In this document: one piece after another, positions 8,255 to 59,007 of the stretch
Numbering within the stretch: position 1 is the stretch's first letter
Layout of the letters: each line of letters opens with the position of its first letter
Origin: Eledone cirrhosa
Lineage: Eukaryota
DNA length: 64,000 nucleotides
Assembly: GCA_964016885.1 (NCBI GenBank)
Contig: OZ024742.1
Location: forward strand, 118,234,001-118,298,000
Direction: 5' to 3'
Translations under genes and position numbers: made by a program
Notes under the pieces: generated by a model
What the model was told of the DNA's origin: nothing
What the model saw: only the letters and a program-made list of their open reading frames with translations
The model's database searches: none

Positions 8255-8385
8255 TCTCATTTCTACAGCTGAGTAAACTGGAGCAACGTGAAATAAAGTG
8301 TCTTCCTCACTCGGTCCGAGAATTGAACTCACAACCTTTCGATTGTAAGCCCAATGCTCTAACCACTGAGCCATGCGCCTTCAGT
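8255..8385 (-). mobile_element. tRNA-derived SINE (family S2)
   Basis: Reverse complement ggcgcatggctcagtggttagagc...gagttcaattctc (A/B boxes) then aagacactttatttcacg, as in the 34900 copy. Confidence 0.75.
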
Positions 8386-13100: not shown

Positions 13101-13984
13101 TCTTAAACTACATTTTACACATGGACCTTTGCTTACATAATATATAAATAATATATAAATAATAAAGTTTATATGATCTAATTAATTCTGACTGATACAA
13201 GATTTAAAAAATATTTTTAATGAAACACTTCTAAAAGGGAACTCTTTGAAATCTCTAAGAGGAAGTACTTTCCCACTGAAGCAACCAGTTCAGTAGTAAG
13301 TACATCAAGTGTTGCTGTCAATTATGACGCAAGGAAAAGGTATGGTATTAAGGGCAAGCTGCTTGTGAAATGTGTTGCGATATAAGATATACGATGATAG
13401 TTATGCATGTATTTTACAAAAATTGATGGCTTATCTAATGTAGATGCAAGTAAAGCAATACTAATGATCCCTAATTACAACTATATATATGCTGGTGTGT
13501 ATGTGTATGTGTACGCATACACACACACACATATATATATACACATTTATATATAAGTATGCATGTGTCAGTGTTGAACAAAAAGGTGACGTGGTTGCCT
13601 TAACACCGTATGGCATAAATTCAGGCTGTTCAGTTTGTTTACAAACGAACAAAGCGACGTTAGCGCCGCTAAACTGATACGTGCATATATGTATGTGTAC
13701 CTGTATGCATATGTATGTATATATGTATATATATATATATATATGTGCATGCTACTGTACGTCTGTATACATATATGTATGTACGTATACATGCATACTT
13801 ACATTTAAGTAAGTGCCATACTAAGAGTGAGAAATGAAATTTCGTTTTCATTTTGTTTCAATTTATCGTTTTCGGTATGCCTGACCGATTTAACTCACTC
13901 AATATGCAAATTAGGCTGCTCAGCCGTTAATTTTCATAAGGAAAGTATATACTTTCGAACGTTCAACTATCTGGCAGATGGGTA

Positions 13985-14029
13985 AACGGTGCTGATGATA
14001 GCTAACAAGCTTGAAACTAGTACATCGTT
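13985..14029 (+). ncRNA. Type I hammerhead ribozyme (F2, copy 1)
   Basis: aacggtg-CUGAUGA-t agct(aaca)agct t-GAAA-ctag-UA-catcgtt: 7-bp stem I with one G.U, palindromic stem III, GUA site after 14022. Confidence 0.88.
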
Positions 14030-14452
14030 CCTGTGTCAGTGTTGAACAAAAAGGTGACGTGGTTGCCTTAACACCGTATGGCATAAATTCAGGCTGTTCA
14101 GTTTGTTTACAAACGAACAAAGCGACGTTAGCGCCGCTAAACTGATACGTGCATATATGTATGTGTACCTGTATGCATATGTATGTATATATGTATATAT
14201 ATATATATATATGTGCATGCTACTGTACGTCTGTATACATATATGTATGTACGTATACATGCATACTTACATTTAAGTAAGTGCCATACTAAGAGTGAGA
14301 AATGAAATTTCGTTTTCATTTTGTTTCAATTTATCGTTTTCGGTATGCCTGACCGATTTAACTCACTCAATATGCAAATTAGGCTGCTCAGCCGTTAATT
14401 TTCATAAGGAAAGTATATACTTTCGAACGTTCAACTATCTGGCAGATGGGTA

Positions 14453-14497
14453 AACGGTGCTGATGATAGCTAACAAGCTTGAAACTAGTACATCGTT
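14453..14497 (+). ncRNA. Type I hammerhead ribozyme (F2, copy 2)
   Basis: Identical to 13985-14029. Confidence 0.88.
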
Positions 14498-14937
14498 CCT
14501 GTGTCAGTGTTGAACAAAAAAAAAAAAAAAAAAAAAAGGTGACGTGGTTGCCTTAACACCGTATGGCATAAATTCAGGCTGTTCAGTTTGTTTACAAACG
14601 AACAAAGCGACGTTAGCGCCGCTAAACTGATACGTGCATATATGTATGTGTACCTGTATGCATATGTATGTATATATGTATATATATATATATATATGTG
14701 CATGCTACTGTACGTCTGTATACATATATGTATGTACGTATACATGCATACTTACATTTAAGTAAGTGCCATACTAAGAGTGAGAAATGAAATTTCGTTT
14801 TCATTTTGTTTCAATTTATCGTTTTCGGTATGCCTGACCGATTTAACTCACTCAATATGCAAATTAGGCTGCTCAGCCGTTAATTTTCATAAGGAAAGTA
14901 TATACTTTCGAACGTTCAACTATCTGGCAGATGGGTA

Positions 14938-14982
14938 AACGGTGCTGATGATAGCTAACAAGCTTGAAACTAGTACATCGTT
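14938..14982 (+). ncRNA. Type I hammerhead ribozyme (F2, copy 3)
   Basis: Identical to 13985-14029. Confidence 0.88.
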
Positions 14983-15405
14983 CCTGTGTCAGTGTTGAAC
15001 AAAAAGGTGACGTGGTTGCCTTAACACCGTATGGCATAAATTCAGGCTGTTCAGTTTGTTTACAAACGAACAAAGCGACGTTAGCGCCGCTAAACTGATA
15101 CGTGCATATATGTATGTGTACCTGTATGCATATGTATGTATATATGTATATATATATATATATATGTGCATGCTACTGTACGTCTGTATACATATATGTA
15201 TGTACGTATACATGCATACTTACATTTAAGTAAGTGCCATACTAAGAGTGAGAAATGAAATTTCGTTTTCATTTTGTTTCAATTTATCGTTTTCGGTATG
15301 CCTGACCGATTTAACTCACTCAATATGCAAATTAGGCTGCTCAGCCGTTAATTTTCATAAGGAAAGTATATACTTTCGAACGTTCAACTATCTGGCAGAT
15401 GGGTA

Positions 15406-15450
15406 AACGGTGCTGATGATAGCTAACAAGCTTGAAACTAGTACATCGTT
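15406..15450 (+). ncRNA. Type I hammerhead ribozyme (F2, copy 4)
   Basis: Identical to 13985-14029. Confidence 0.88.
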
Positions 15451-15756
15451 CCTGTGTCAGTGTTGAACAAAAAGGTGACGTGGTTGCCTTAACACCGTAT
15501 GGCATAAATTCAGGCTGTTCAGTTTGTTTACAAACGAACAAAGCGACGTTAGCGCCGCTAAACTGATACGTGCATATATGTATGTGTACCTGTATGCATA
15601 TGTATGTATATATGTATATATATATATATATATGTGCATGCTACTGTACGTCTGTATACATATATGTATGTACGTATACATGCATACTTACATTTAAGTA
15701 AGTGCCATACTAAGAGTGAGAAATGAAATTTCGTTTTCATTTTGTTTCAATTTATC

Positions 15757-16350
<594 letters not shown>

Positions 16351-22069: not shown

Positions 22070-22840
22070 GGAGGACATGATATGAAGGCTAAAAAACACT
22101 TGTGGATAGTGCAGTTTTAAATCAACATATGAAAAGTAATTTTAGATTGATGTGTGATATTGGGAAAACAAATTTTTTTTATTTAGAGAGGGGGGTGGAA
22201 AGGATGAAAAAAGGGGAGGAGATGAGAGTGAAGGTGGAGAGGGAGAGATGGGTGATAGAGAGAAAGGGATAGTTTTTATAACTGAGAAAAGATATATTGT
22301 TTTACATAGAGAGGTTGAAAACCGTTGGAAGATAATGTATAAATTAAAAGAATTTGAAAATTAACGAAGGGAAAAATATGTACGAGGAAGGAGAGGGAGT
22401 TAATATGTATTGAGATTAAAAAGTTTGATGATAGAGAGAAAAAAATAGTAATTGCGGATGAATATTCTAACGTCAAAAAAATGTGTGTGTGTTTACAAGT
22501 ATTATGGCAATTTCAAAATTAACGAAGAGAAAAAATTATTAAGGTTTGTGTATTGAAGGATTTGAGAAAAATAATGTGAAGTTAAGGTTTGTATATTGAA
22601 AGAATTGATAATATGTGCGAAGAAAGAGTTAATATGTATTAAAAATTATTAAGGTTTGTGTATTGAAGGATTTGAGAAAAATAATGTGAAGTTAAGGTTT
22701 GTATATTGAAGGAATTGATAATATGTGCGAAGAAAGAGTTAATATGTATTAAGAATGAGTTAGATGATGGGGAGAAAAAAATAATAAATTAAGGATGAAT
22801 AATCTAGCGTCAAAAAAATGTGTACGAAGAAGGAGAGGGA

Positions 22841-23213
22841 TGTAATTTATGAATGTAAAGTTATAACTAGCACCAATTCCTTCACCTATTTTGGCTCCAC
22901 TTCCACCTCTTTTAAAGCTCGTCTCTATAATCATCATTCATCTTTTAAATACAAACTTAAAAGAACCAACACGGCTCTCCCAGAACTCATATGGTCCTTG
23001 AAAGACAAAAATATTAAATATACCATCTTTTGGAAGAAGGTTTCTTCTGCGTCCTCATACTTGAACAGCTCTCTATCTAAAATCTGTAATCTCTGCCTAA
23101 ATGAAAAATTTACCATTATCTCTAATCTAGATTCTATAATAAATAGACGTACAGATTTGTTTTCTATCTGCTTGCATAAATTCCATAGGACTTTTCACAA
23201 AGTATACAGCTAA
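22841..23213 (+). pseudogene. C-terminal GIY-YIG endonuclease fragment of PLE element 1
   Basis: VIYECKV...YFGST...FKARLYNHHSSF...W...CNLCLNEK...INRR.DL...C.H; same motif order as the end of the 643-aa ORF but clearly diverged. Confidence 0.88.
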
Positions 23214-23389
23214 TATTTAATTCTTTATCAATTTAGAATCTTTTCTCAAAGGCACATATACATACACCTCTTTTAAAATATACCCATCTTCCTACCTTAC
23301 TTCAAAAGGTATTATACACTCTATAATACTTGTTTACTCATTACCCTCATTCTATTTTCACCTTGTAAAATCCTTCATAACATATACAT

Positions 23390-24500
23390 TTGTTTTTTTG
23401 ACGCTAGATTATTCATCCTTAATTTATTATTTTTTCTCCCCATCATCTAACTCATTCTTAATACATATTAACTCTTTCTTCGCACATATTATCAATTCCT
23501 TCAATATACAAACCTTAACTTCACATTATTTTTCTCAAATCCTTCAATACACAAACCTTAATAATTTTTTAATACATATTAACTCTTTCTTCGCACATAT
23601 TATCAATTCCTTCAATATACAAACCTTAACTTCACATTATTTTTCTCAAATCCTTCAATACACAAACCTTAATAATTTTTTCTCTTCGTTAATTTTCAAA
23701 TTGCCATAATACTTGTAAACACACACACATTTTTTTGACGTTAGAATATTCATCCGCAATTATTATTTTTTTCTCTCCATCATCAAACTTTTTAATCTCA
23801 ATACATATTAACTCCCTCTCCTTCTTCGTACACATTTTTTTGACGCTAGATTATTCATCCTTAATTTATTATTTTTTTTCTCCCCATCATCTAACTCATT
23901 CTTAATACATATTAATTCTTTCTTCGCACATATTATCAATTCCTTCAATATACAAACCTTAACTTCACATTATTTTTCTCAAATCCTTCAATACACAAAC
24001 CTTAATAATTTTTTCTCTTCGTTAATTTTGAAATTGCCATAATACTTGTAAACACACACACATTTTTTTGACGTTAGAATATTCATCCGCAATTATTATT
24101 TTTTTCTCTCCATCATCAAACTTTTTAATCTCAATACATATTAACTCCCTCTCCTTCTTCGTACACATTTTTTTGACGCTAGATTATTCATCCTTAATTT
24201 ATTATTTTTTTTCTCCCCATCATCTAACTCATTCTTAATACATATTAATTCTTTCTTCGCACATATTATCAATTCCTTCAATATACAAACCTTAACTTCA
24301 CATTATTTTTCTCAAATCCTTCAATACACAAACCTTAATAATTTTTTCTCTTCGTTAATTTTGAAATTGCCATAATACTTGTAAACACACACACATTTTT
24401 TTGACGTTAGAATATTCATCCGCAATTACTATTTTTTTCTCTCTATCATCAAACTTTTTAATCTCAATACATATTAACTCCCTCTCCTTCCTCGTACATA
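23390..24500 (+). repeat. ~333-bp tandem repeat (~3.3 units, one with a ~110-bp internal duplication) in PLE 3' UTR
   Basis: tgacgctagattattc at 23399, 23841, 24174. Confidence 0.9.
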
Positions 24501-24807
24501 TTTTTCCCTTCGTTAATTTTCAAATTCTTTTAATTTATACATTATCTTCCAACGGTTTTCAACCTCTCTATGTAAAACAATATATCTTTTCTCAGTTATA
24601 AAAACTATCCCTTTCTCTCTATCACCCATCTCTCCCTCTCCACCTTCACTCTCATCTCCTCCCCTTTTTTCATCCTTTCCACCCCCCTCTCTAAATAAAA
24701 AAAAATTTTTTTCCCAATATCACACATCAATCTAAAATTACTTTTCATATGTTGATTTAAAACTGCACTATCCACAAGTGTTTTTTAGCCTTCATAGCAT
24801 GTCCTCC

Positions 24808-24878: not shown

Positions 24879-25017
24879 CATGGAACTCCTTTAACCATCT
24901 TTTGATCTTATATATTATGTATACTCCAGTCCTACAAACTGTAGAGTGCTTCTCATCCGATATCTGCATTGCTTTATTGTACTACAATAAAACTCACCTC
25001 CTACATTATATATATAT

Positions 25018-27060
25018 AAAGAACTCAGGAAAAATTATAAAAAATCTAATAATGCGTCACTCACCAACATCAACAACAAAACACACAACATAGTAAAAAA
25101 ACTAAACATTGAAGATAGAACTGAACCTTTGGCATTGAAAAGACCACACTTCAACCTGAAGGATCATAAATCAAACTTTATCTCAAATCCTTCTATAAGA
25201 CTTATATGTCCCTCCAAATCAGATATTGGAATAATTAGCAAAAAAATTTTGGATAGAGTCATCCCACAAATAAGAAAACACGTTATTTTACCACTCTGGG
25301 AAAACACTTCCCAGGTAATTAACTGGTTTAAAAATATTAGATGTAAATCTTCTGCTTCATTTCTACAATTTGATATAGATAATTACTATTCTTCTATATC
25401 ACCTATACTCCTGAACAAAGCATTGATATTTGCTAAAAATAGATCTAACTTAACTTTGGATGACATTAATATTATTACACATGCTAGACTAACACTTATT
25501 GAATTTCAGAATGAATACTGGACCAGAAACACATATAGTAATCTATTTGATATTACTATGGGTTCAAGCGATTCCGCCCAAATTACTGATCTTGTGGGCC
25601 TCTTTCTCCTTTTCAACATAAATGCCTCCTTTCCCCACCTTAAAGGTGGTTTATATCGTGATGACTGTCTTCTTCTTTCCAACAACCTTAGCCTTTCAGA
25701 AATAGAAAAAGACAAAAAGCATATTAGAACTTTCCTTAAAGACTATTATAGTCTTCATATTACTTTTGAAAAAACAAGTAAAGTAGTAAATTTCCTAGAT
25801 ATAACTTTAGACTTAGCTACGGGTATCTACCAACCTTACCATAAACCCAACCAAAACTTACATTACATACACTCACAATCTAATCACCCTAAATCTATCC
25901 TTAAAAACCTTGCATATAATATATCACTTAGAATTTCTAACCTTTCTTCTAACCAAGATGTATTTGATAAAAATGCGACCTTCTATAACGAAGCTCTAGA
26001 TAGAAGTGGCCACAAAAATAGATTAGAATATATACCTTCTACTAAAAATACTAAAAACATACAACCTAATATTACCAACAAACACCAAATGAAAAGTACA
26101 CACCTAAATGCCACCCACAATATACCCCAAAATACCAAATCTTCTAATATAAAATATAGTAACTCTCAAAAAACTACTCATCATACAACTCTAATAAATA
26201 TTAATAATAAAACTCCTAATAAAAAAGATAAAACACCTAAATCTACAAATATAACTAAAAATGGTTGTGGTGAGATCATTAACATTAATCCTCCTAGTAA
26301 ACATCACGATACAACCTATAAAAATAATAAAAATAATAAACAACATAGAAACCGTAATAGACGGGTTACTTGGTATAATGCTCCATTTAATTTACAAATT
26401 AAGGATAATATTGCTAAAAAATTTTTTTATATCCTAGAGAAAAACTTCCCGCCAAACCACAAATACCATCAAATCTTAAATAGGTCTACAGTTAAATTCT
26501 CATACTCAACAACAAATAACATAAAACAAAATATAAGTGCCTATAATGCATATAAATGTAAGAAAACCATAAGTATACCACCAATACATCAAACTAACCA
26601 TAATATCTCCTCAAATACAGAATTAACGAAAGGTTGTAACTGTAGAAACAAAGCAAACTGCCCATTAAAAGGAAATTGTCTTGTTAACAACATAGTTTAT
26701 AAATGTAATGTTAAAACTAAAGATTCTATTTGCTCATATATAGGAGCTACTTCTAACAATTTTAAGACAAGGTTTAATACCCACAAACATAGTTTTAAAA
26801 ATGCCGCACTGGCTAATACAACATCTCTAGCAGAAAAAATCAATAGTTATAAAAATAAGAATATAGAATATGATTTGACCTGGAGTGTGCTCAAAAGAGC
26901 CACCCCTTATCAAAATAATAGAAATGAATGTAGATTATGTTCCCAAGAACTATTTGAAATAATGAAATCTAAGGATATCCTATTAAATAAACGACAGGAA
27001 TTAATTATATCGTGTAATCATAAACTAAAAAAAACATTTAAATATTATAAACCCAATTAA
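25018..27060 (+). CDS. Penelope-like element RT + GIY-YIG endonuclease (Naiad-like, element 2), 5'-truncated, uninterrupted
   Basis: Frame open from 24991: KLNIEDRTEPLA..LKDHK.NF..NP..RLICPSKS, QFDI..YY.SI, ITMGSSDSA, GLYRDD, VNFLDITLDL, YIHSQSNHP, WYNAPF, CNCR.K..CPL.G.C, VY...YIG, CRLC..E, LNKR.EL...C.H. The ORF-track TTG start is not a real start. Confidence 0.93.
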   Translation, partial: KELRKNYKKSNNASLTNINNKTHNIVKKLNIEDRTEPLALKRPHFNLKDHKSNFISNPSIRLICPSKSDIGIISKKILDRVIPQIRKHVILPLWENTSQVINWFKNIRCKSSASFLQFDIDNYYSSISPILLNKALIFAKNRSNLTLDDINIITHARLTLIEFQNEYWTRNTYSNLFDITMGSSDSAQITDLVGLFLLFNINASFPHLKGGLYRDDCLLLSNNLSLSEIEKDKKHIRTFLKDYYSLHITFEKTSKVVNFLDITLDLATGIYQPYHKPNQNLHYIHSQSNHPKSILKNLAYNISLRISNLSSNQDVFDKNATFYNEALDRSGHKNRLEYIPSTKNTKNIQPNITNKHQMKSTHLNATHNIPQNTKSSNIKYSNSQKTTHHTTLININNKTPNKKDKTPKSTNITKNGCGEIININPPSKHHDTTYKNNKNNKQHRNRNRRVTWYNAPFNLQIKDNIAKKFFYILEKNFPPNHKYHQILNRSTVKFSYSTTNNIKQNISAYNAYKCKKTISIPPIHQTNHNISSNTELTKGCNCRNKANCPLKGNCLVNNIVYKCNVKTKDSICSYIGATSNNFKTRFNTHKHSFKNAALANTTSLAEKINSYKNKNIEYDLTWSVLKRATPYQNNRNECRLCSQELFEIMKSKDILLNKRQELIISCNHKLKKTFKYYKPN

Positions 27061-40477: not shown

Positions 40478-40790
<313 letters not shown>

Positions 40791-44845: not shown

Positions 44846-47004
44846 ATCCACGAGAGTTACACTTTATGCTCATATTAGTATCAGGCATACCCTTAATTAT
44901 TTTTTCTTCGAAGTTAATCTACGTTAGTTTATGTAGATTTCAACCCAGTTACTAAGTGATAAGACATTCTTTTTTTAGTAAATACAGATCCGATGATTTG
45001 TAAATAAGTGAATGAGTCAGCGCGTGCATGTAGATATATATACTTGCACACATGGTATGTGTGAACATATCTCTTTAGTATACAGCTGATAATTCCATAT
45101 GTATGTGTATGTCATATGTACGCATGTAGTTGTGTGCATACAGTCATTCCATGAAATTCAGATGGATAATCGCAGGGTGTCTTACAAATTTTCAGTGTAC
45201 CGTTAATCGATAGAATTTGGAGGGTTCCGTTTAATTTTATTTCTTCTGTCTTGGAAAATCCCAATATTTCCGAGGTTTTATTCAACTATATCTATCCTGC
45301 TGTGTTTTCACTGAATTGCTGCTGTTTTGAGAGACGTTCCACAAGTATTCCTCTTTTTTTTTTAAGTATGGTTACATTTTGGTTTTGGTGCTCCTTTCCT
45401 GTGATCGTTAGGGTATTTATTCCCGCGAATAACTTTATAAGTAGTTTTCACAACTATGCGGTGCGTTGTGGGGACTTAATTCCTCGCTGACAGCCAATAA
45501 TGATGTGAATAACACATTCCTCAGAGATATCAAAATCGAAATTTTATATCACAACGCCGCGTCTTGACCTTTCTTATTGATCAGGTATTTAGCAATTAGC
45601 TCTGCCCTGAATAGCGAATGTGTATCCCTTCCACTGGGTTGTGATATAAGTATCACATATACAAGAGAGACAACTAGTTTGCAGTATATATACCTATGAA
45701 TTACTTCTATTGGTATGACGAGTGTATGATAAATGCTTCTCCTCAATCTTTAAGTAGGTTACTCTAGATATCTTTGGGTCACATTGAACATTTCTACATT
45801 CAGATTATTTGTTCAAGAGTTCTTCACCTACTCCCAAGGTGTTGTTGTTTTCACTGCTAAGTAGGCTTGTGGTGTATTTGTACTTCTCATTAGTATTCAA
45901 GTGTTGTCTAAGTAATAAAATGTGACACTCAAAGGCCGCTTGAACTTGCCTTATGCATCAGCCTCGATCCCTCCATTTAACATAAATCTTGTCTATGTCA
46001 GTCACTGTAAATATGAAAACTGCCAATGGTGGGTAGTATCTTCCACGTTGATATCCAGATAGAGGATCTCATCAAGTGTGCAGTTTAAAGCATTGTGGTT
46101 TGTGGTTTTATTAACGGGAGACAACTCTTCTATATTTGTCTAAGTCTGATGAGTTATTACTTGGTCATTCTGGCTTTACACGCAGCAGCAACGTATGAAA
46201 CATTCGAAACAATTCCAATATATTTGAAGTATTTGCTACTTGAGATGAAACAGATGAAATATTTTCACCCGGTTGGCTACCAAATATAACCAAACACGCT
46301 GTGTATGTCCTGTGAAAATGTTAAGACCAGTTCTAAATGTCTCTTGCTATGAATATTACCTTAATACAGCTTAATGTCATCCATGAAAAAAGTGTGAGTG
46401 ACATTAACATTCCTTTCTTCTTCAAATTATTAACCTTACTGATACATGTTCATATGTGTGTGTGTACGTGTATGTTTGTGCGTGCGTGTGCGGGCATTAC
46501 ATATATGCTTATATATAACGTATAATTTATATTAGAATATAACATAAGATACTATAGATTATCAAACTCAGGTTTAATGACCTTAACTATTCTTTAATCC
46601 ACATTTATCTATGTCTACGTCACAAACTGTATACAGACATAAATATAGAGACCACACACAGACAAATGTTCACAAACACACATATACAATCCCACACCTA
46701 CATATACCTCCCCCCTATGTATATATATATAGGAAAATGTTTGACCCCGACGGCAGAGCTCAAGCCGTTTATATATATATATACACATATATATATAAAT
46801 GTAAGTATGTATACGTACATACATATATGTATACAGACGTACAGTAGTATGTATATATATACATACATGCACACATATATATGTACGTATGGGTTTACCG
46901 AACATTTATTATAATGTTCGGTTTGTTTGTAAACAAACAGCCCAAATTAAGCCATACAGTGTTCGGCAACCATCGTCGCCCTTTTGTTCAACACTGACAA
47001 AGGA

Positions 47005-47047
47005 ACGATGAACTAGTTTCAAGCTTATTAGCTATCGTCAGCATCGT
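47005..47047 (-). ncRNA. Type I hammerhead ribozyme (F2b)
   Basis: Reverse complement of 47319-47361. Confidence 0.87.
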
Positions 47048-47318
47048 ATACCTTCCTCTCAGAGGATTGAACGTTTGAATGTATGTATATATATACATAC
47101 TACTGTACGTCTGTATACATATATGTATGCACGTATGCATACTTATATTTAAGTATCAGCCGTACTAAGAGTGAGAAATGAAATTTTATTTAATCCTTTT
47201 CCATTTATCGTTTTCGGTACGCCCGGCCGACTCGATATGCAAATTAGGCTGCTCAGCTGTTAATGTACTTAAGGAGAGTATATACTTGCAAACGTTCAAT
47301 CATCTGACAGGAAGGTAT

Positions 47319-47361
47319 ACGATGCTGACGATAGCTAATAAGCTTGAAACTAGTTCATCGT
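47319..47361 (+). ncRNA. Type I hammerhead ribozyme (F2b)
   Basis: acgatg-CUGACGA-t agct(aata)agct t-GAAA-ctag-UU-catcgt. Confidence 0.87.
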
Positions 47362-47625
47362 TCCTTTGTCAGTGTTGAACAAAAGGGCGACGATGGTTGC
47401 CGAACACTGTACGGCTTAATTCGGGCTGTTTGTTTACAAACAAACCGAACATTGTAATAAATGTTCGGTAAAACCATACGTACATGTATATATATGTGCG
47501 CATGTATGTATATATATACATACTACTGTACGTCTGTATACATATATGTATGTACGTATACATAATAACATTTAAGTATCAGCCGTACTAAGAGTGAGAA
47601 ATGAAATTTCATTTCATTCTTTTCC

Positions 47626-47690
<65 letters not shown>

Positions 47691-47975
47691 AATAAAATAC
47701 AGTGTTATTAACTGATATTGATACCCTGCAATTAAACAAGCTCAAAGTATGAATACTGACCATTATATAGCAATATATGTATAAATAAACACACTAAATT
47801 TCGTTTCTAAAATTACGAGGGTAGAGAATGCCACAAATGTTTTAAATATTTAATCTTAAACATACAGTAGGATAGTATTTTATACTGTAAAATATGCACC
47901 TCGTGGGCTGCACGCCATACGTGGTATTTTTACTCCTCCGGTTGCTGTTAGATGTGTTTTGTTTCATTTGATCTA

Positions 47976-48064
47976 ATCTCTCGCTGATGATAGCCTACAG
48001 ATTATCTGTTACAAACACAATTTTCAGGGCGAAACAGATTAAATCTATAATCTGTCCGAGAGAT
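47976..48064 (+). ncRNA. Type I hammerhead ribozyme (F7, copy 1)
   Basis: atctctcg-CUGAUGA-ta gcct...gggc-GAAA-cagatta(aatcta)taatctg-UC-cgagagat: 8-bp stem I, 7-bp stem III, GUC site. Confidence 0.88.
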
Positions 48065-48207
48065 AAAATGTTTTTGATACGGTCAGTATAAAATTATATC
48101 CTACTGTAGGCTTAAGATTAAATATTTAAAACATTTGTGGCATTCTCTACCCTCGTAATTTTAGACACGAAATTTACTGTGTTTATTTATACATATATTA
48201 CTATATA

Positions 48208-48395
48208 ATTGTTTCTACTTTTGGCACAAGGCCAGCAATTACCCAGTGCATTACTGGTACTTTATTTCATCGACCTCGTAAGAATGAAAGGCAAAGTTAA
48301 CCTCGGCGGCATTTGAACTCAGAATGGCAAGTGCCGTAACTATGCGTCAAAGCATGGCGTCCGACTCTCTACCGATACTGCCAATCCCACCTTTT
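48208..48395 (-). mobile_element. S1 SINE nested in the F7 element
   Basis: Reverse complement of S1; tattactatataat duplicated on both sides. Confidence 0.85.
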
Positions 48396-48647
48396 TTACT
48401 ATATTATTACTATATAATGCTCAGTATTTATACTTTGAGCTTGTTTAATTGCAGGGTATCAATATGAGTTAATAACTCTGTATTTTATTAGTATTCCGGC
48501 TCCCTATCTAGGTGAGCTTATAAATTGAGTGTAATAAGGCTAATATTTCTAGCATAACCACTCATACCACGTATGGCGTGCAGCCCACGAGGTTCATATT
48601 TTTACTCCTCCGGTTAGTGTTAGATGTGTTTTGTTTCATTTGATCTA

Positions 48648-48736
48648 ATCTTTCGCTGATGATAGCCTACAGATTACCTGTTACAAACACAATTTTCAGG
48701 GCGAAACAGATTAAATCTCTAATCTGTCCGAGAGAT
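48648..48736 (+). ncRNA. Type I hammerhead ribozyme (F7, copy 2)
   Basis: As copy 1; a stem I C-to-U change leaves a U.G wobble. Confidence 0.87.
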
Positions 48737-48882
48737 AAAATGTTTTTGATACGGTCAGTATAAAATTATATCCTTCTGAATGTTTAAGATTAAATATTTA
48801 AAACAGTTGTAGCATTCTCTACCCTCGTAATTTTAGACACGAAATTTACTGTGTTTATTTATACATATATTACTATATATAA

Positions 48883-49545: not shown

Positions 49546-52500
49546 TTACAGACCCATACTCAGAGTAGTCCCATTCACTCGGGCCATTCTTGCTTCTCTC
49601 ACCCATCTTTCAACAAAATGCTGGGAAGAGAGCACTTCCCTCTCTACCCTGATTTTCCTTTTCAGATGAAATTTGAAAAAGTTAATCAGGGCATCACCGA
49701 AGAGGTAAGTGCTCGTCTTCAGCCCTTTCAACGTGTCCACCATACTATCTCTTTCACCATGGCCACGAGGCAGATAAAAACTGCCTGCCCTTCCCGGCTA
49801 AAGAAAGAGGGCGGGGCAATCCTCACGATGGACTCAGCTGATAGCCGGATCCGTCCTACACGCGACAGCAGGTGTTCGACATAAACCCACAAGTCAGCAA
49901 TGCTCGGACACTGGATGAGTGCGTGCAGGACGGTTTCGTCGCCCTGCGCGCATCTCGGACATGCCCAGCTGACGGCACCTCCATGCCTGTAGAGTTTATC
50001 CCGAAGTGGCAAGGCTCCTCGATAACACTGCCAGGTCAGGGATTTATGGAAGTTGTCCAAAGGCCCCGGCCCGAAAGTCCTTCCGAAGAGATTGGCTAGT
50101 TGATTTCGTCGACGCCTAGAGTTTCTCCAAGTACGTCGTCGCTCTTCCCCTCCACAAATCCCCTATAGAACACAAAGGTGGAGTTTCCACCGATCACATT
50201 GCCCGATTGGTCGAGGGCTGGGAGCACCTGAAGACATTCTGATCTCCAAGCGCTCCCTCTCGGTCTTCTCTTGACCCAGGACTGCAGCTCCGTCAAGGAG
50301 ACAAGCTGCGGAAAGACGTGTCTAGCAAACGGCGACCACACCTGATCACCGTTGAGGAAGAGGTGGAGATGTCGTAGCCTGAGCGCGTGTTTGCGCATCA
50401 TCAGCCACGGCATGCCCAGCCCTCCACGTAGCGGGTGTTGACAGCAGTTGGACCGCCTGACCATCGGAGCGCGTCCCTTCCACAAAAATAGAAAGAGCAA
50501 ACGCTCCAGCGCAGTCAGGCGGGGCTTAGGACAAGGTACGACGGTCAGGCGGTAGTAGATGACGGACGCGATGTAGGCGTTAGCTACTTCCGCTCGACCT
50601 TTCAGGGATAACTTCCTCTCCGCCCATTTCTGGCTGAGAGAAGCCACCCTGCTCGTCACCTCGTCCCAGTTTTTGTCAGTCTGGAGGTCCGGACCGAACC
50701 AGACCCTAGCAATTTAAGCGGTCCGTCGCTCCAGCGCCCGACGACGTTGTTGGACGGCATGGAGCTGCCTCTCCAGGTGCCGAGCTGCAGGCCCACTGAC
50801 TTTTCCTGGTGGATCATTGCTCCTGTCACCGCTTCGTATTCTCTTAGTGTAGTGCCGATCGCCTCGATGTGTTTGGCGTTCGACACCACTACGGTAACAT
50901 CGTCCGCATATGCTGACACGGATCTTCCACATCCTAGTTCGCGCGGGACCCCCTCAACGTCTCCGGTGTATGCAGTAATGGCTCCAGAGTCAATACGTAC
51001 AAGAGGGACGAGAGAGGACATCCTTGGCGGACCGAGCGCATGATGCTGAACGGTTCCGAAAGGTGACCGTTCACTCTCACCACAGAGCAGATGTCACGGT
51101 GCATAGCAGCGACCCTATCGAAAGCTTTCGACTGATCTAAATTGATCAAGGACCCACCCGTGCCAGTTTCCCTAGCTACCCTCTCTACGATGTATCGCAT
51201 GGGGTGGAGGTTGTCGTGGATGGATCTGTCGGGTATGGCGCATGTCTGCGCCTCTCCCACCAGACCACCAACGACAAGCGCCAACCTCTTTGCTAGCACC
51301 TTGGCCAAAATCTTGAACTCTGTGTTTAGCAGAGTTATGGGCCTGAAATTATGTATGTTATCCTCCTTGTTCGGATCCTTTCTCAGCAGCGCCACCGCTC
51401 CTCGGCTCACAGAGCTGGGAAATTCTCCCGTTCTGTTGCCAGTTGCAGTAGATGTTTGCCAAGAGGCCTCCGAACAAGTCTGGCATCTGTACGTAAAGTT
51501 CATAGGGCAGACCATCCAAACCAGGCGATTTACCCCTTGTGCAGCCAGTCATTGCCTCCCGTACTTCAGCGGCTGTTATCGGCTTTTCGCAACACTCCGC
51601 CTCAGTAGCCGAGAGCCGTGGCAGTCCGTCGAGGTAAACACTAAAGTCCATCCCTCGATCCGGCCCGCCGCTGCCCCCGAACAGCTGAGCAAAGTGTCGC
51701 TGAAAAGCTTCACACATTTGCCTGGGATCGAGTAGCATGCGCCCGTCGTGGTCCACCAAAGACCAGATCGTGGCTTTGTTGCCACGACGCGCCTCCGCCA
51801 CTCGGGCCCATTGAACGGCTTTCGTCCCCTCGTGTCTGAGAGCACGCACCCTAACTCTGACAACGCAGCCTTCTTTCTTTGCATTGAAGAATTGGTCAAG
51901 GGCCAATTTCGCCGCAAGTACGTCGGTCGCGATGCCTTTGCTAAGCGCCTCGTCTAATTTTCTAACTAGTTCTCCCTCTGCTCTATTTTTCTCTATAGCT
52001 AAAGCCTTACTAAACCTAATGGACTCTATTCTAATCGCTCTTTTCAGAGCAAACCACCACTTATTGTTGACGATCGCCCCCGTCAAAGCTCGCTTAACTA
52101 GTTTGCTAATCCGGTCTCTGTAGGCCTTGTGCGCTGGTAATGACGCGTTTAGCGTCCAGTAGCCGGGTCCTTGTCTATGAAGCCTATCTAAGTCAAGCAC
52201 ACAGATCACGAATTTGTGGTCCGTGTAGCTGACTATCTTGAATTGTGGACAGCCTATGCTAGACCTATCTATTTCCTTACAAAATACTCTATCTAGATAT
52301 GATCTGGATGACCCGATACGGTTTGTCCAAGTCCACATTGGCACATTCAGGAAATCCAATCGGTACCTGTCATACAGTTCAAAACGCTTGAGCAGGTTGG
52401 TGAGGCTATTGCACCCTCCTCCCCTATCCGCTAATCCCACACAGTCCCAGCGTGCATCTAAGATCCCGTTCCAGTCGCCCACTAACACTAAACAGTCTGG

Positions 52501-55587: not shown

Positions 55588-58500
55588 TTACAGACACATA
55601 CTCAGAGAAGGCCCATTCATTCGGACCATTCTTGCTTCTCTCACCCATCTTTCAACAAAATGCTGGGAAGGGAGCACTTCCCTCTCTACCCTGATTTTCC
55701 TTTTCAGATGAAATTTGAAAAAGTTAATCAGGGTATCACCGAAGAGGTCAATGCTCGTCTTCAGCCCTTTCAAACGTGTCCACCATACTATCTCTTTCGC
55801 CATGGCCACCAGACAGATAAAAACTGCCTGCCCTTCCCGGCTAAAGGAAGAGGGCGGGGCAATCCTCACAATGGACTCAGCTGATAGCTGGATCCGTCCT
55901 ACACGTGACAGAAGGTGTTCGACATAAACCCACAAGTCAGCAATGCTCGGACACTGGACGAGTGCGTGCAGGACGGTTTCGTCGCCCTGCGCGCATCTCG
56001 GACATGCCCAGCTGACGGCACCTCCATGCCTGTAGAGTTTATCCCGAACTGGCAAAGCTCCTCGGTAGCACTGCCAGGCCAGATATTTCTGGAAGTTGTC
56101 CATAGGCCCCGGCCCGAAAGTCTTCCGAAGAGATTGGCTAGTTGATTTTCGTCAACGCCTAGAGTTTCCCCAAGTACGTCGTCGCTCTTCCCCTCCACTA
56201 ATCCCCTATAGAACGCCAAGGTGGAGTTTCCACCGATCACATCGCCCGATTGGTCGAGGGCTGGGAGCACCTGAAGACATTCTGATCTCCAAGCGCTCCC
56301 TCTCGGTCTTCGCTTGACCCAGGACTGCAGCTCCGTCATGGAGACGAGCTGGGGAAAAACGCGTCTAGCAAACGGCGACCACACCTGATCACCGTCGAGG
56401 AAGAGGTGGAGATGTCGTATCCTGAGCGCGTGTCTGCGCATCATCAGCCACGGCATGCCCAGCCCTCCATGTAGCGGGTGTTGACAGCAGATGGACCACC
56501 TGACCATCGGAGCGCGTCCCTTCCACAAGAAGCGAAAGAGCAAACGCTCCAGCGCAGTCAGGCGGGGCTTAGGACAAGGTACGACGGTCAGGCGGTAGTA
56601 GATGACGGACGCGATGTACGCGTTAGCCACCTCCGCTCGACCTTTCAGGGATAGCTTCCTCTCGGCCCATTTCTGGGTAAGAGAAGCCACCCTGCTCGTC
56701 ACCTCGTCCCAGTTTTTGTCCGTCTGGAGGTCTGGACCGAACCAGACCCCTAGCAATTTAACCGGTCCGTCCGTCCAGCGCCCGACGACGCTGTTGGACG
56801 GCATGGACCTGCCTCTCCAGGTGCCGAGCTGCAGGCCCACTGACTTTTCCTGGTTGATCATTGCTCCTGTCACCGCTTCGTATTCTCTTAGTGTAGTGCC
56901 GATCAACTCAATGTGTTTGGCGTTCGACACCACTACGGTGACATCGTCGGCATATGCTGACACGGATCTTCCGCATCCTAGTTCCCGCGGGACCCCCCTC
57001 AACGTCTCCAGTTTGTGCAGTAATGGCTCGAGAGTCAATACGTACAATAGGGACGAGAGGGGACATCCTTGGCGGACCGAGCGCATGATGTTGAACGGTT
57101 CCGAAAGGTGACCGTTCACTCTCACTACAGAGCAGATGTCGCTGTGCATGGCAGCGATCCAGCCTCTGAAGACGGGCCCAAAGCCAGCCGCCCTCAGGAC
57201 TGCCGCTAGGTAACGATGGTCGACCCTATCGAAGGCTTTCGACTGATCTAAATTGATCAAAGACCCACCCGTGTTAGGTTCTCTAGCTACCCTCTCTACG
57301 ATGTATCGCATGAGGTGGAGGTTGTCGTGGATGGATCTGTCGGGAATGGCGCATGTCTGTGCCTCTCCCACCAGACCACCAACGACAAGCGCCAACCTCT
57401 TTGCTAGCACCTTGGCCAAAATCTTGAACTCTGTGTTTAGCAGAGTTATGGGCCTAAAATTATCTATGTTATCCCCCTTGTTCGGATCCTTTCTCAGCAG
57501 CGCCACCGCTCCTCGGCTCACAGAGCTGGGAATTCTCCCGTTCTGTTGCCAGTTGCAGTAGACGTCCGCCAAGAGGCCTCCGAACAAGTTTGGCATTTGT
57601 ACGTAAAGTTCATAGGGCAGACCATCCAAACCAGGCGATTTACCCCTTGTGCAACTAGTCATTGCATCCCGTACTTCAGCGGTTGTTATCGGCTTTTCGC
57701 AACACTCCGCCTCAGTGGCCGAAAGTCGCGGCAGTCCGTCGAGGTAGACACTAAAGTCCATCCCTCGATCCGGCCCGCCACTGCCCCCGAACAGTTGAGC
57801 GAAGTGTCGCTGAAAAGCTTCACACATTTGCCCGGGATCGAGTAGCATGCGCCCGTCGTGGTCCACCAAAGACCGGATCGTGGCTTTGTTGCCACGACGC
57901 GCCTCCGCCACTCGGGCCCATTGAACGGCTTTCGTCCCCTCGTGTCTGAGAGCACGCACCCTAACTCTGACAACGCAGCCTTCTTTCTTTGCATTGAAGA
58001 ATTGGTCAAGGGCCAATTTCGCCGCAAGTACGTCGGTCGCGATGCCTTTGCTAAGCGCCTCATCTAATTTTCTAACTAATGCTCCCTCTGCTCTATTTTT
58101 CTCTATTGCTAAAGTCTTACTAAACCTAATGGACTCTATTCTGATTGCTCTTTTCAGAGCAAACCACCACTTGTTGTTGACGATGGCCCCCGTCAACGCC
58201 CGCTTAACTAGTTCGCTAATCCGGTCTCTGTAGGCCTTGTGCGCTGGTAAGGACGCGTTTAGCTTCCAGTAGCCGGGTCCTCGTCTATGAAGCCTATCTA
58301 ACTCAAGCACACAGATCACGAATTTGTGGTCCGTGTAGCTGACTATCTTGAATTGTGGACAGCCTATGCTATACCTATCTATTTCCCTACAAAATACTCT
58401 ATCTAGATATGATCTGGATGACCCTATGCGATTTGTCCAAGTCCACATTGGTACATTCGGGAAATCCATTCGGTACCTGTCAGACAGTTCAAAACGTCTG

Positions 58501-59007
58501 AGCAGGTTGGTGAGACTCTTGCACCCTCCTTCCCTATCCACTAATCCCCCACAATCCCAGCGTGCATCTAAGATCCCGTTCCAGTCGCCCACTAACACTA
58601 AAGAGCGGGACGTTCCAAGAAAGGTCTCCAGACGCCGGAAGAAATCAGGCCGCCCTGCTCCTGTCGGGGCATAGACGGCCACTAACCTGAAAGCTTGGCC
58701 GTCTCCGCTGGTCACGTCCAGCACCACCAACTTACCTTCTGGGTCCAGGAAGATGGCCCGTATGGCAAGATCCAAACCTCTCCGAAAAAGCACAGCAACT
58801 CCTCCCCCCCGATCCCGGACGGCTGGGACATGCGTACACATCGTAGCCGCCGAAGATCGGTGCGAAAGCCTGTGCTTCGGAGATTCTGGTCTCGCTGCTG
58901 GCCACTACATCTATGTTTAGTGACCTGAGGTCGTTGAGCAGGTGGCCCTGCTTCCATGACGACCCCAAGCCACGCGCATTTATGCTGCCTATTCTGAGTG
59001 AGTTCAT
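55588..59007 (-). CDS. Copy B ORF2 (APE-RT), 980-aa open segment, frameshifts near both ends
   Basis: MNSLRIGSINARGL start (59007), APE and RT motifs in 55899-58841, C-terminus in 55588-56103. Confidence 0.92.

Follow-up and report, generated by a model that had tools for sequence, protein, structure and literature searches.

We identified, at about 47 kb in a 64,000-nt stretch of DNA (the window, meaning the whole stretch analysed), what is most likely one insertion of a minor non-LTR retrozyme subfamily; a Penelope-like reverse transcriptase-endonuclease probably made this copy within a TA microsatellite. Retrozymes are an already known kind of element, in which it is ordinary to meet another subfamily that has kept its ribozyme. 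Insertions of the repeat stop at either of two fixed points in TA microsatellites, a footprint suggesting that Penelope-type enzymes copy it. How Penelope-like elements form their tail and inverted copy and whether they move retrozymes are treated as open questions in PMC8557442, PMC7229834 and PMC11167929, as far as their accessible text goes. Being non-coding, only 430 nt long, mapped at two start sites with a structure predicted around them, and represented by thousands of natural insertions, this template could go straight into the in vitro assay that already exists.

Structure of the insertion

The 47-kb copy was arranged head-to-head, with one arm stopping at a first 3' end (site 1) and the other at a second (site 2) (Table 1). 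Each arm contained one type I hammerhead motif with a five-pair proximal stem I, CUGANGA, a four-pair stem II, GAAA and a two-pair palindromic stem III, and arrays elsewhere contained one such motif per unit. The arms were partial tandem units, as in non-LTR retrozymes: in the forward arm, 47079-47208 recurred at 47502-47631 (94%), and the consensus unit of its subfamily was 431 nt. The forward hammerhead showed U.U in place of G10.1-C11.1. No reading frame of at least 150 aa overlapped 46796-47631, and the RT plus GIY-YIG frame of an autonomous Penelope-like element was absent from the 47-kb element. The octamer of the internal tail copy lay about 90 nt upstream of the hammerhead core; it was invariant in subfamilies A, B and C and was not kept in one unit of the sister family E (described below).

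Table 1. Positions in the window of the parts of the 47-kb copy and of the 14-kb array
Feature	Position	Strand	Basis or detail
Left TA-rich target run	46769..46797	.	sequence
Inverted tail-less arm, ~290 nt; 3' end is site 2 at 46796	46796..47087	-	94.6% identity to 47279-47574, end mapping
Hammerhead motif of inverted arm (U17)	47006..47046	-	
Forward tailed arm, 1.3 units of 423-nt repeat; 3' end is site 1 at 47631	47079..47631	+	
Internal copy of tail and predicted three-way junction, then octamer ATGCAAAT at 47237-47244	47152..47244	+	
Type I hammerhead motif, extended stem I	47302..47374	+	core from 47325; predicted cleavage after 47355
35-nt block invariant across subfamilies A, B and C, just upstream of site 2	47523..47557	+	
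Tail, ~57 nt, from site 2 (47574) to site 1 (47631)	47575..47631	+	
Right (TA)30 target run, sharing the element's last 3 nt	47629..47688	.	
13-nt inverted tail-less arm of 14-kb array, at its 5' end, stopping at site 2	13554..13566	-	
Comparison copy: subfamily A array, 4.7 units of 468 nt	13564..15760	+	

A sequence-only reading of the window had compared the 47-kb copy with those at 14 kb. The two elements were 78% identical over ~600 nt; the four units of the 14-kb array that were compared had 0 mismatches, one of them carrying a 17-nt A-run expansion. The hammerheads differed by exactly the four changes which that reading had claimed (4/41 sites): G.U to A-U in stem I, U to C at N7, AACA to AATA in loop II and A to U at H17. 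The many flanking differences it had described were also found, at 60/381 aligned sites plus 47 gap positions. The contrast between hammerhead and flank in this pair was not above chance (Fisher p=0.37), and the chance of zero change at the 11 core sites was 0.15. Both insertions ended, as had been stated, at a homologous site beside (TA)n, but the 14-kb end lay ~5 nt past the usual point, with a junction reading TTTAT-CATT-TATA. The 3' end proved to be fixed but not single, and a second fixed site ~57 nt upstream, also at (TA)n, was used by the inverted arm 46796-47087, which the sequence-only reading had overlooked.

Several other features were observed in the window. Beside the insertion, at 47759-48879, lay a different element; it adjoined TA runs and carried inverted repeats as well as direct ones (283 nt, 96%). 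LINE-type frames were located at 55899-58904 (-), encoding endonuclease and RT in 1001 aa, and at 50934-51548 (-), an RT fragment. A 689-aa open frame at 24991-27060 (+) had no Pfam match and followed 110/333-nt tandem repeats at 22531-24505. The only Rfam match, just above cut-off, was tRNA-like (8316-8373, -) and is possibly a SINE head. Other hammerhead-like motifs were found at 40541 (+), 34339 (-) and 17572 (-); the first two were followed by TA runs and resembled motifs in three further loci (L176, L180 and L189).

Two fixed 3' ends and head-to-head arms

Insertion ends were mapped in 145 loci, most of which had been picked for an intact core, and site 2 was partly defined by the absence of the tail. 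The results showed 108 ends at site 1 and 107 at site 2, the latter 56-59 nt upstream, and 97/108 and 102/107 of them, respectively, ran into (TA)3 or more. In this tabulation the 3' junctions were fixed rather than random, falling at one site or the other, which bears out the fixed 3' junction proposed earlier. Among the head-to-head pairs, 58/61 joined site 1 to site 2 (p=3e-14; 57/60 without one locally duplicated insertion), the exceptions being L197, L200 and L201. The last hammerhead of an arm led to one of the two sites in 162/188 scorable cases (78 site 1, 84 site 2); the 26 unclassified arms represent missed sites, continuing arms or other ends, and three more lay at a locus edge. Two homologous sites, 69 nt apart, were present in the 20 arm ends listed for family E, some of whose loci overlap.

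We also considered a second arm in every insertion, and rejected it: 45/58 single-ended loci probed had none by the test used, and several of the 13 positives were internal units.

Family size and subfamilies

Counted as pattern matches in the 3.0-Gb genome, the repeat is dispersed and multi-copy, with 10,122 exact A cores, 25,186 relaxed cores and 465 U17 cores, and reversed-pattern controls gave 0. Clustering of 211 hammerhead copies from 125 loci separated three main groups: A (consensus unit 477 nt), B, to which the 47-kb copy belongs (431 nt), and C (420 nt). Because 465 of the 25,186 cores carried U17, subfamily B is real but minor (<2% of cores). These U17 cores and the B cluster ruled out that U17 is private to the 47-kb copy, a possibility raised by the listed relaxed cores, which were all A17.

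A sister family, E, gave 5,335 matches to a pattern that excludes the first stem II pair of the present family. It had ~467-nt units, the canonical G10.1-C11.1, long two-armed arrays and a 69-nt tail; one E unit was colinear with B over the unit and 39% different outside the ribozyme (~61% identical). The E loci (L211-L240, e.g. at G000:C1:30.83 Mb) are young and well suited as material for assays. U17 was fixed in subfamily B and was also present in the one E unit compared. U17 loci averaged 1.35 hammerheads (20 loci); the mean was 2.0 for the 48 loci of A (p=0.009) and 1.78 for 45 loci of C and others (p=0.10). We rejected U17 as a cause of shorter arrays, because family E has long arrays and U17 (one unit).

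Conservation of the hammerhead

The motif had the canonical type I core, with C3-A9, G12-A14, A15.1-U16.1 and an H17 other than G. U17 obeys the NUH cleavage-site rule given in PMC3884650. At 10.1-11.1, U.U was found in 183/184 copies of A, B and C in place of the G10.1-C11.1 pair that PMC4209133 describes as conserved in metazoan type I hammerheads, and Rfam at curated cut-offs called no hammerhead.

Across the A, B and C consensus units, the variable sites numbered 0/11 in the core, 5/41 in the motif and 84/379 elsewhere; within these subfamilies alone the conservation was non-significant (core p=0.06, motif p=0.16), and their longest invariant run (35 nt) lay outside the ribozyme. We analysed 70 of 136 available motif copies (48 distinct), in which 95.4% of cells were paired and the covariation score exceeded all 500 shuffles. 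Two-sided change occurred in just 3/21 pairs, not above shuffles (177/500), and the covariation was in substance one pair going G.U, A-U, U.G. With E added, 6/12 pairs changed on both sides yet stayed paired, in six haplotypes; 0/500 shuffles matched this, and slid controls were far lower. The 11/11 core agreement of E is circular because its search pattern demanded the core, whereas its stems are valid evidence because stem pairing was no part of that pattern.

Patterns freed of the core gave 25,713 and 26,439 matches. Among the matches listed (100 per pattern), 7 were changed at an invariant 5'-half site, three of them in one local cluster, and zero at G12-A15.1 or U16.1; since so few core changes appeared among them, this sample holds no large dead-core subfamily. 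Three nearby copies at G000:C1:19618884-19622222 shared an A6-to-G core change, likely through local duplication of a dead copy.

For 30 B copies selected on overall similarity, singletons amounted to 0.27 per core site and 0.34 per flank site, corresponding to 3/330 core and 123/6706 flank bases (p=0.33 without CpG), so that inserted copies showed no core protection. In contigs from two runs of one sample, common variants fell on H17 and on pair 3 of stem I and on none of the 11 core sites, a comparison of little power. The flanks are no neutral yardstick: they hold the longest invariant block, and a further helix with covariation surrounds the 3' site. Taken together, the comparisons support a ribozyme fold kept by selection only in lineages that keep copying. 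The selection claimed by the sequence-only reading is thus upheld in the wider comparison, through the E stems, and for lineages still copying, but not by the 14-kb and 47-kb pair alone or for inserted copies, in which the core decays about as the flanks do.

Predicted RNA structure around the tail

A consensus fold of 56 of 103 available copies placed site 1 inside a predicted three-way junction closed by a seven-pair helix. One pair of this helix was A-U in 41 copies and G-C in 13 (70 and 14, plus 2 G.U, of 86 scored), a switch that was probably a single event in subfamily C. Folds of single sequences (z=-2.7 and -3.1) set site 2 within the loop of a hairpin immediately upstream, a feature lost in the consensus fold. 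The 47-kb copy, in which about 9 nt of the 3' strand of the closing helix are missing from the internal tail copy (47152..47244), was without the three-way fold (z=0.0). A stem read by eye, pairing the 5' side of the tail with sequence after site 1, was not the consensus fold and was set aside.

Probable link to Penelope-like elements

Penelope-like insertions carry a tail at one end and an inverted copy (PMC8557442), and the tail has been traced to two internal RT start sites (PMC11167929), according to the parts of these papers that were accessible. The insertions described here have the same footprint, namely a tail at one end, an inverted truncated arm and an AT-rich target. Two protein-coding GIY-YIG elements (L176 and L186) were likewise head-to-head in (TA)n, with one arm longer by ~60 and ~50 nt, respectively; relatives in their clusters carried RT, and 2/3 also GIY-YIG. 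Among 50 GIY-YIG loci, taken from the 150 that were scored out of 10,596 candidates, neither bodies nor ends shared sequence with the retrozyme, and no autonomous partner was found.

Template of the arms

Arms longer than a cleaved monomer allows were found in 42/58 cases at site 1 and 43/58 at site 2, and both arms were that long in 29. Arms ran through intact cleavage sites; their lengths ranged from 13 nt to >2 kb, and the inner joints were scattered. Inner ends within 6 nt of the cleavage site were not enriched (1/116 vs 3.4 expected), with the ends imprecise where alignments run into palindromes.

With overlap zones removed, variants occurring in at most two insertions recurred in the partner arm in 52/303 cases and in other insertions in 25/6698. 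Those private to one insertion recurred in the partner arm in 32/241 cases (11/56 insertions); the 47-kb copy had no private variant common to its two arms. Because private variants recur in partner arms, both arms often come from one source. This source could be a circle or a long uncleaved transcript, and later conversion between arms could also have shared the variants.

Proposed mechanism and alternatives

We propose that the enzyme would bind a structured RNA element around the tail and cut both strands of the TA run. Each DNA end would then prime its own cDNA, using site 1 on one side and site 2 on the other, probably through 2-3 paired nt, and the two cDNAs would be joined where they stop. 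The template would be more than one unit long or circular, and a circle made through the predicted ribozyme cleavage would be the likelier source. As a tentative model, one Penelope-type dimer might dock on the conserved three-way junction in such a circle, so that two coupled cDNA starts flank the first helix of the junction, one per cut strand, and the tail reflects the spacing of the active sites on one RNA. It would be the covarying junction rather than the ribozyme that serves as recognition signal and lets retrozymes borrow the enzyme.

Penelope-type mobilisation may instead act on a transcript that reads through a tandem array and stays uncleaved; the ribozyme would then descend from a Penelope pseudo-LTR and persist for its fold or some other step rather than for circles. 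We hold this account to be possible but doubtful. The inner ends avoid the cleavage site and the arms cross it, which a multimer explains as well as a circle, and the U.U at 10.1-11.1 may weaken cleavage. With the anole enzyme in vitro, ribozyme mutants had no effect on insertion and unprocessed RNA was the main substrate, as described in the accessible part of PMC11167929. Against a read-through template, some arms reach 1,000-1,100 nt although U17 loci average 1.35 hammerheads, so that long source arrays would be rare. No mismatch separates the four units of the 14-kb array, the stems covary across families, and mollusc retrozymes have been shown as circles in what is accessible of PMC7229834.

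The sequence-only reading had proposed that a single fixed 3' site anneals to TA targets for priming. Such priming would resemble that of a LINE tail. Junction overlap was scored in 90/108 site-1 and 83/107 site-2 ends, of which 10 and 15, respectively, had a gap before the TA run. Among gap-free junctions, 71/80 at site 1 and 64/68 at site 2 overlapped the run by at least 2 nt, compared with 26% and 50% expected under uniform stops with random phase. This excess would suit annealing, and a LINE-type endonuclease-RT frame lies within the window. The overlap is just 2-3 nt (5 in one subfamily), which makes annealing possible only: primer pairing of 2-3 nt fits the junctions, and so equally would later slippage, or a start and a nick phase that are both fixed. 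The annealing part of the earlier claim is therefore compatible with the overlaps but is not singled out by them, and the sole Penelope-like enzyme tested in vitro started without homology, according to PMC11167929 in the part accessible. In addition, there are two sites, used about equally and paired across arms; both are internal to the repeating unit, and there is no poly(A) or repeat tail. We regard the LINE-tail reading as improbable.

A DNA-level element, either a MITE or a satellite that recombination spreads from one TA microsatellite to another, its hammerhead being fortuitous or a fossil, is a very unlikely source, for although MITEs also show inverted arms and TA targeting (in the literature as far as accessible) and inserted copies decay neutrally, the matching terminal inverted repeats and fixed length of MITEs were not found, the outer ends differing by the tail and the arms varying in length with scattered inner joints, while the RNA helices covary and protein-coding Penelope-like elements have the same geometry.

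Comparison with known systems

The repeat resembles the animal non-LTR retrozymes of PMC7229834 and 10.64898/2026.07.22.740005, as described in their accessible parts, in its low-GC tandem unit, which codes no protein and holds a single type I hammerhead, its monomers to multimers, its thousands of copies and the presence of Penelope-like elements in the same genome. Its unit of 420-477 nt reaches, at the long end, beyond their 150-450 range. Fixed ends, a tail and inverted arms are not described for retrozymes in the accessible parts of these two sources, and the words 'inverted' and 'microsatellite' occur 0 times in PMC7229834. Among titles and the starts of abstracts, in coverage outside subscription journals, we found no report of retrozyme insertion ends. 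Li, Clavereau and Pollet 2026 (10.64898/2026.07.22.740005) report, in its accessible part, a sequence link between retrozymes and the pseudo-LTR, unlike the 50 GIY-YIG loci here, and cleavage in vitro of 1/9 predicted frog retrozymes.

The hammerhead is like the metazoan type I hammerheads with short palindromic helix III described in the accessible part of PMC4209133, having the conserved core, a four-pair helix II and a 2-pair helix III with a palindromic loop. This two-pair palindromic helix III, common to both, suits dimer cleavage. It differs from them by U.U for G10.1-C11.1 in A, B and C, and sister family E has G-C.

The insertions share with endonuclease-bearing Penelope-like elements, as far as PMC8557442 and PMC11167929 are accessible, partial tandems, an inverted 5'-truncated copy and a tail at one end only, as well as (TA)n or AT-rich targets and two internal start sites downstream of the hammerhead. 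Unlike those elements, the retrozyme codes no protein, its tail is 56-69 nt rather than 30-40, and between its start sites and the target there is an overlap of 2-3 nt. In vitro, either strand could receive either site from the anole enzyme, whereas here the arms of one insertion differ in site in 58/61 cases.
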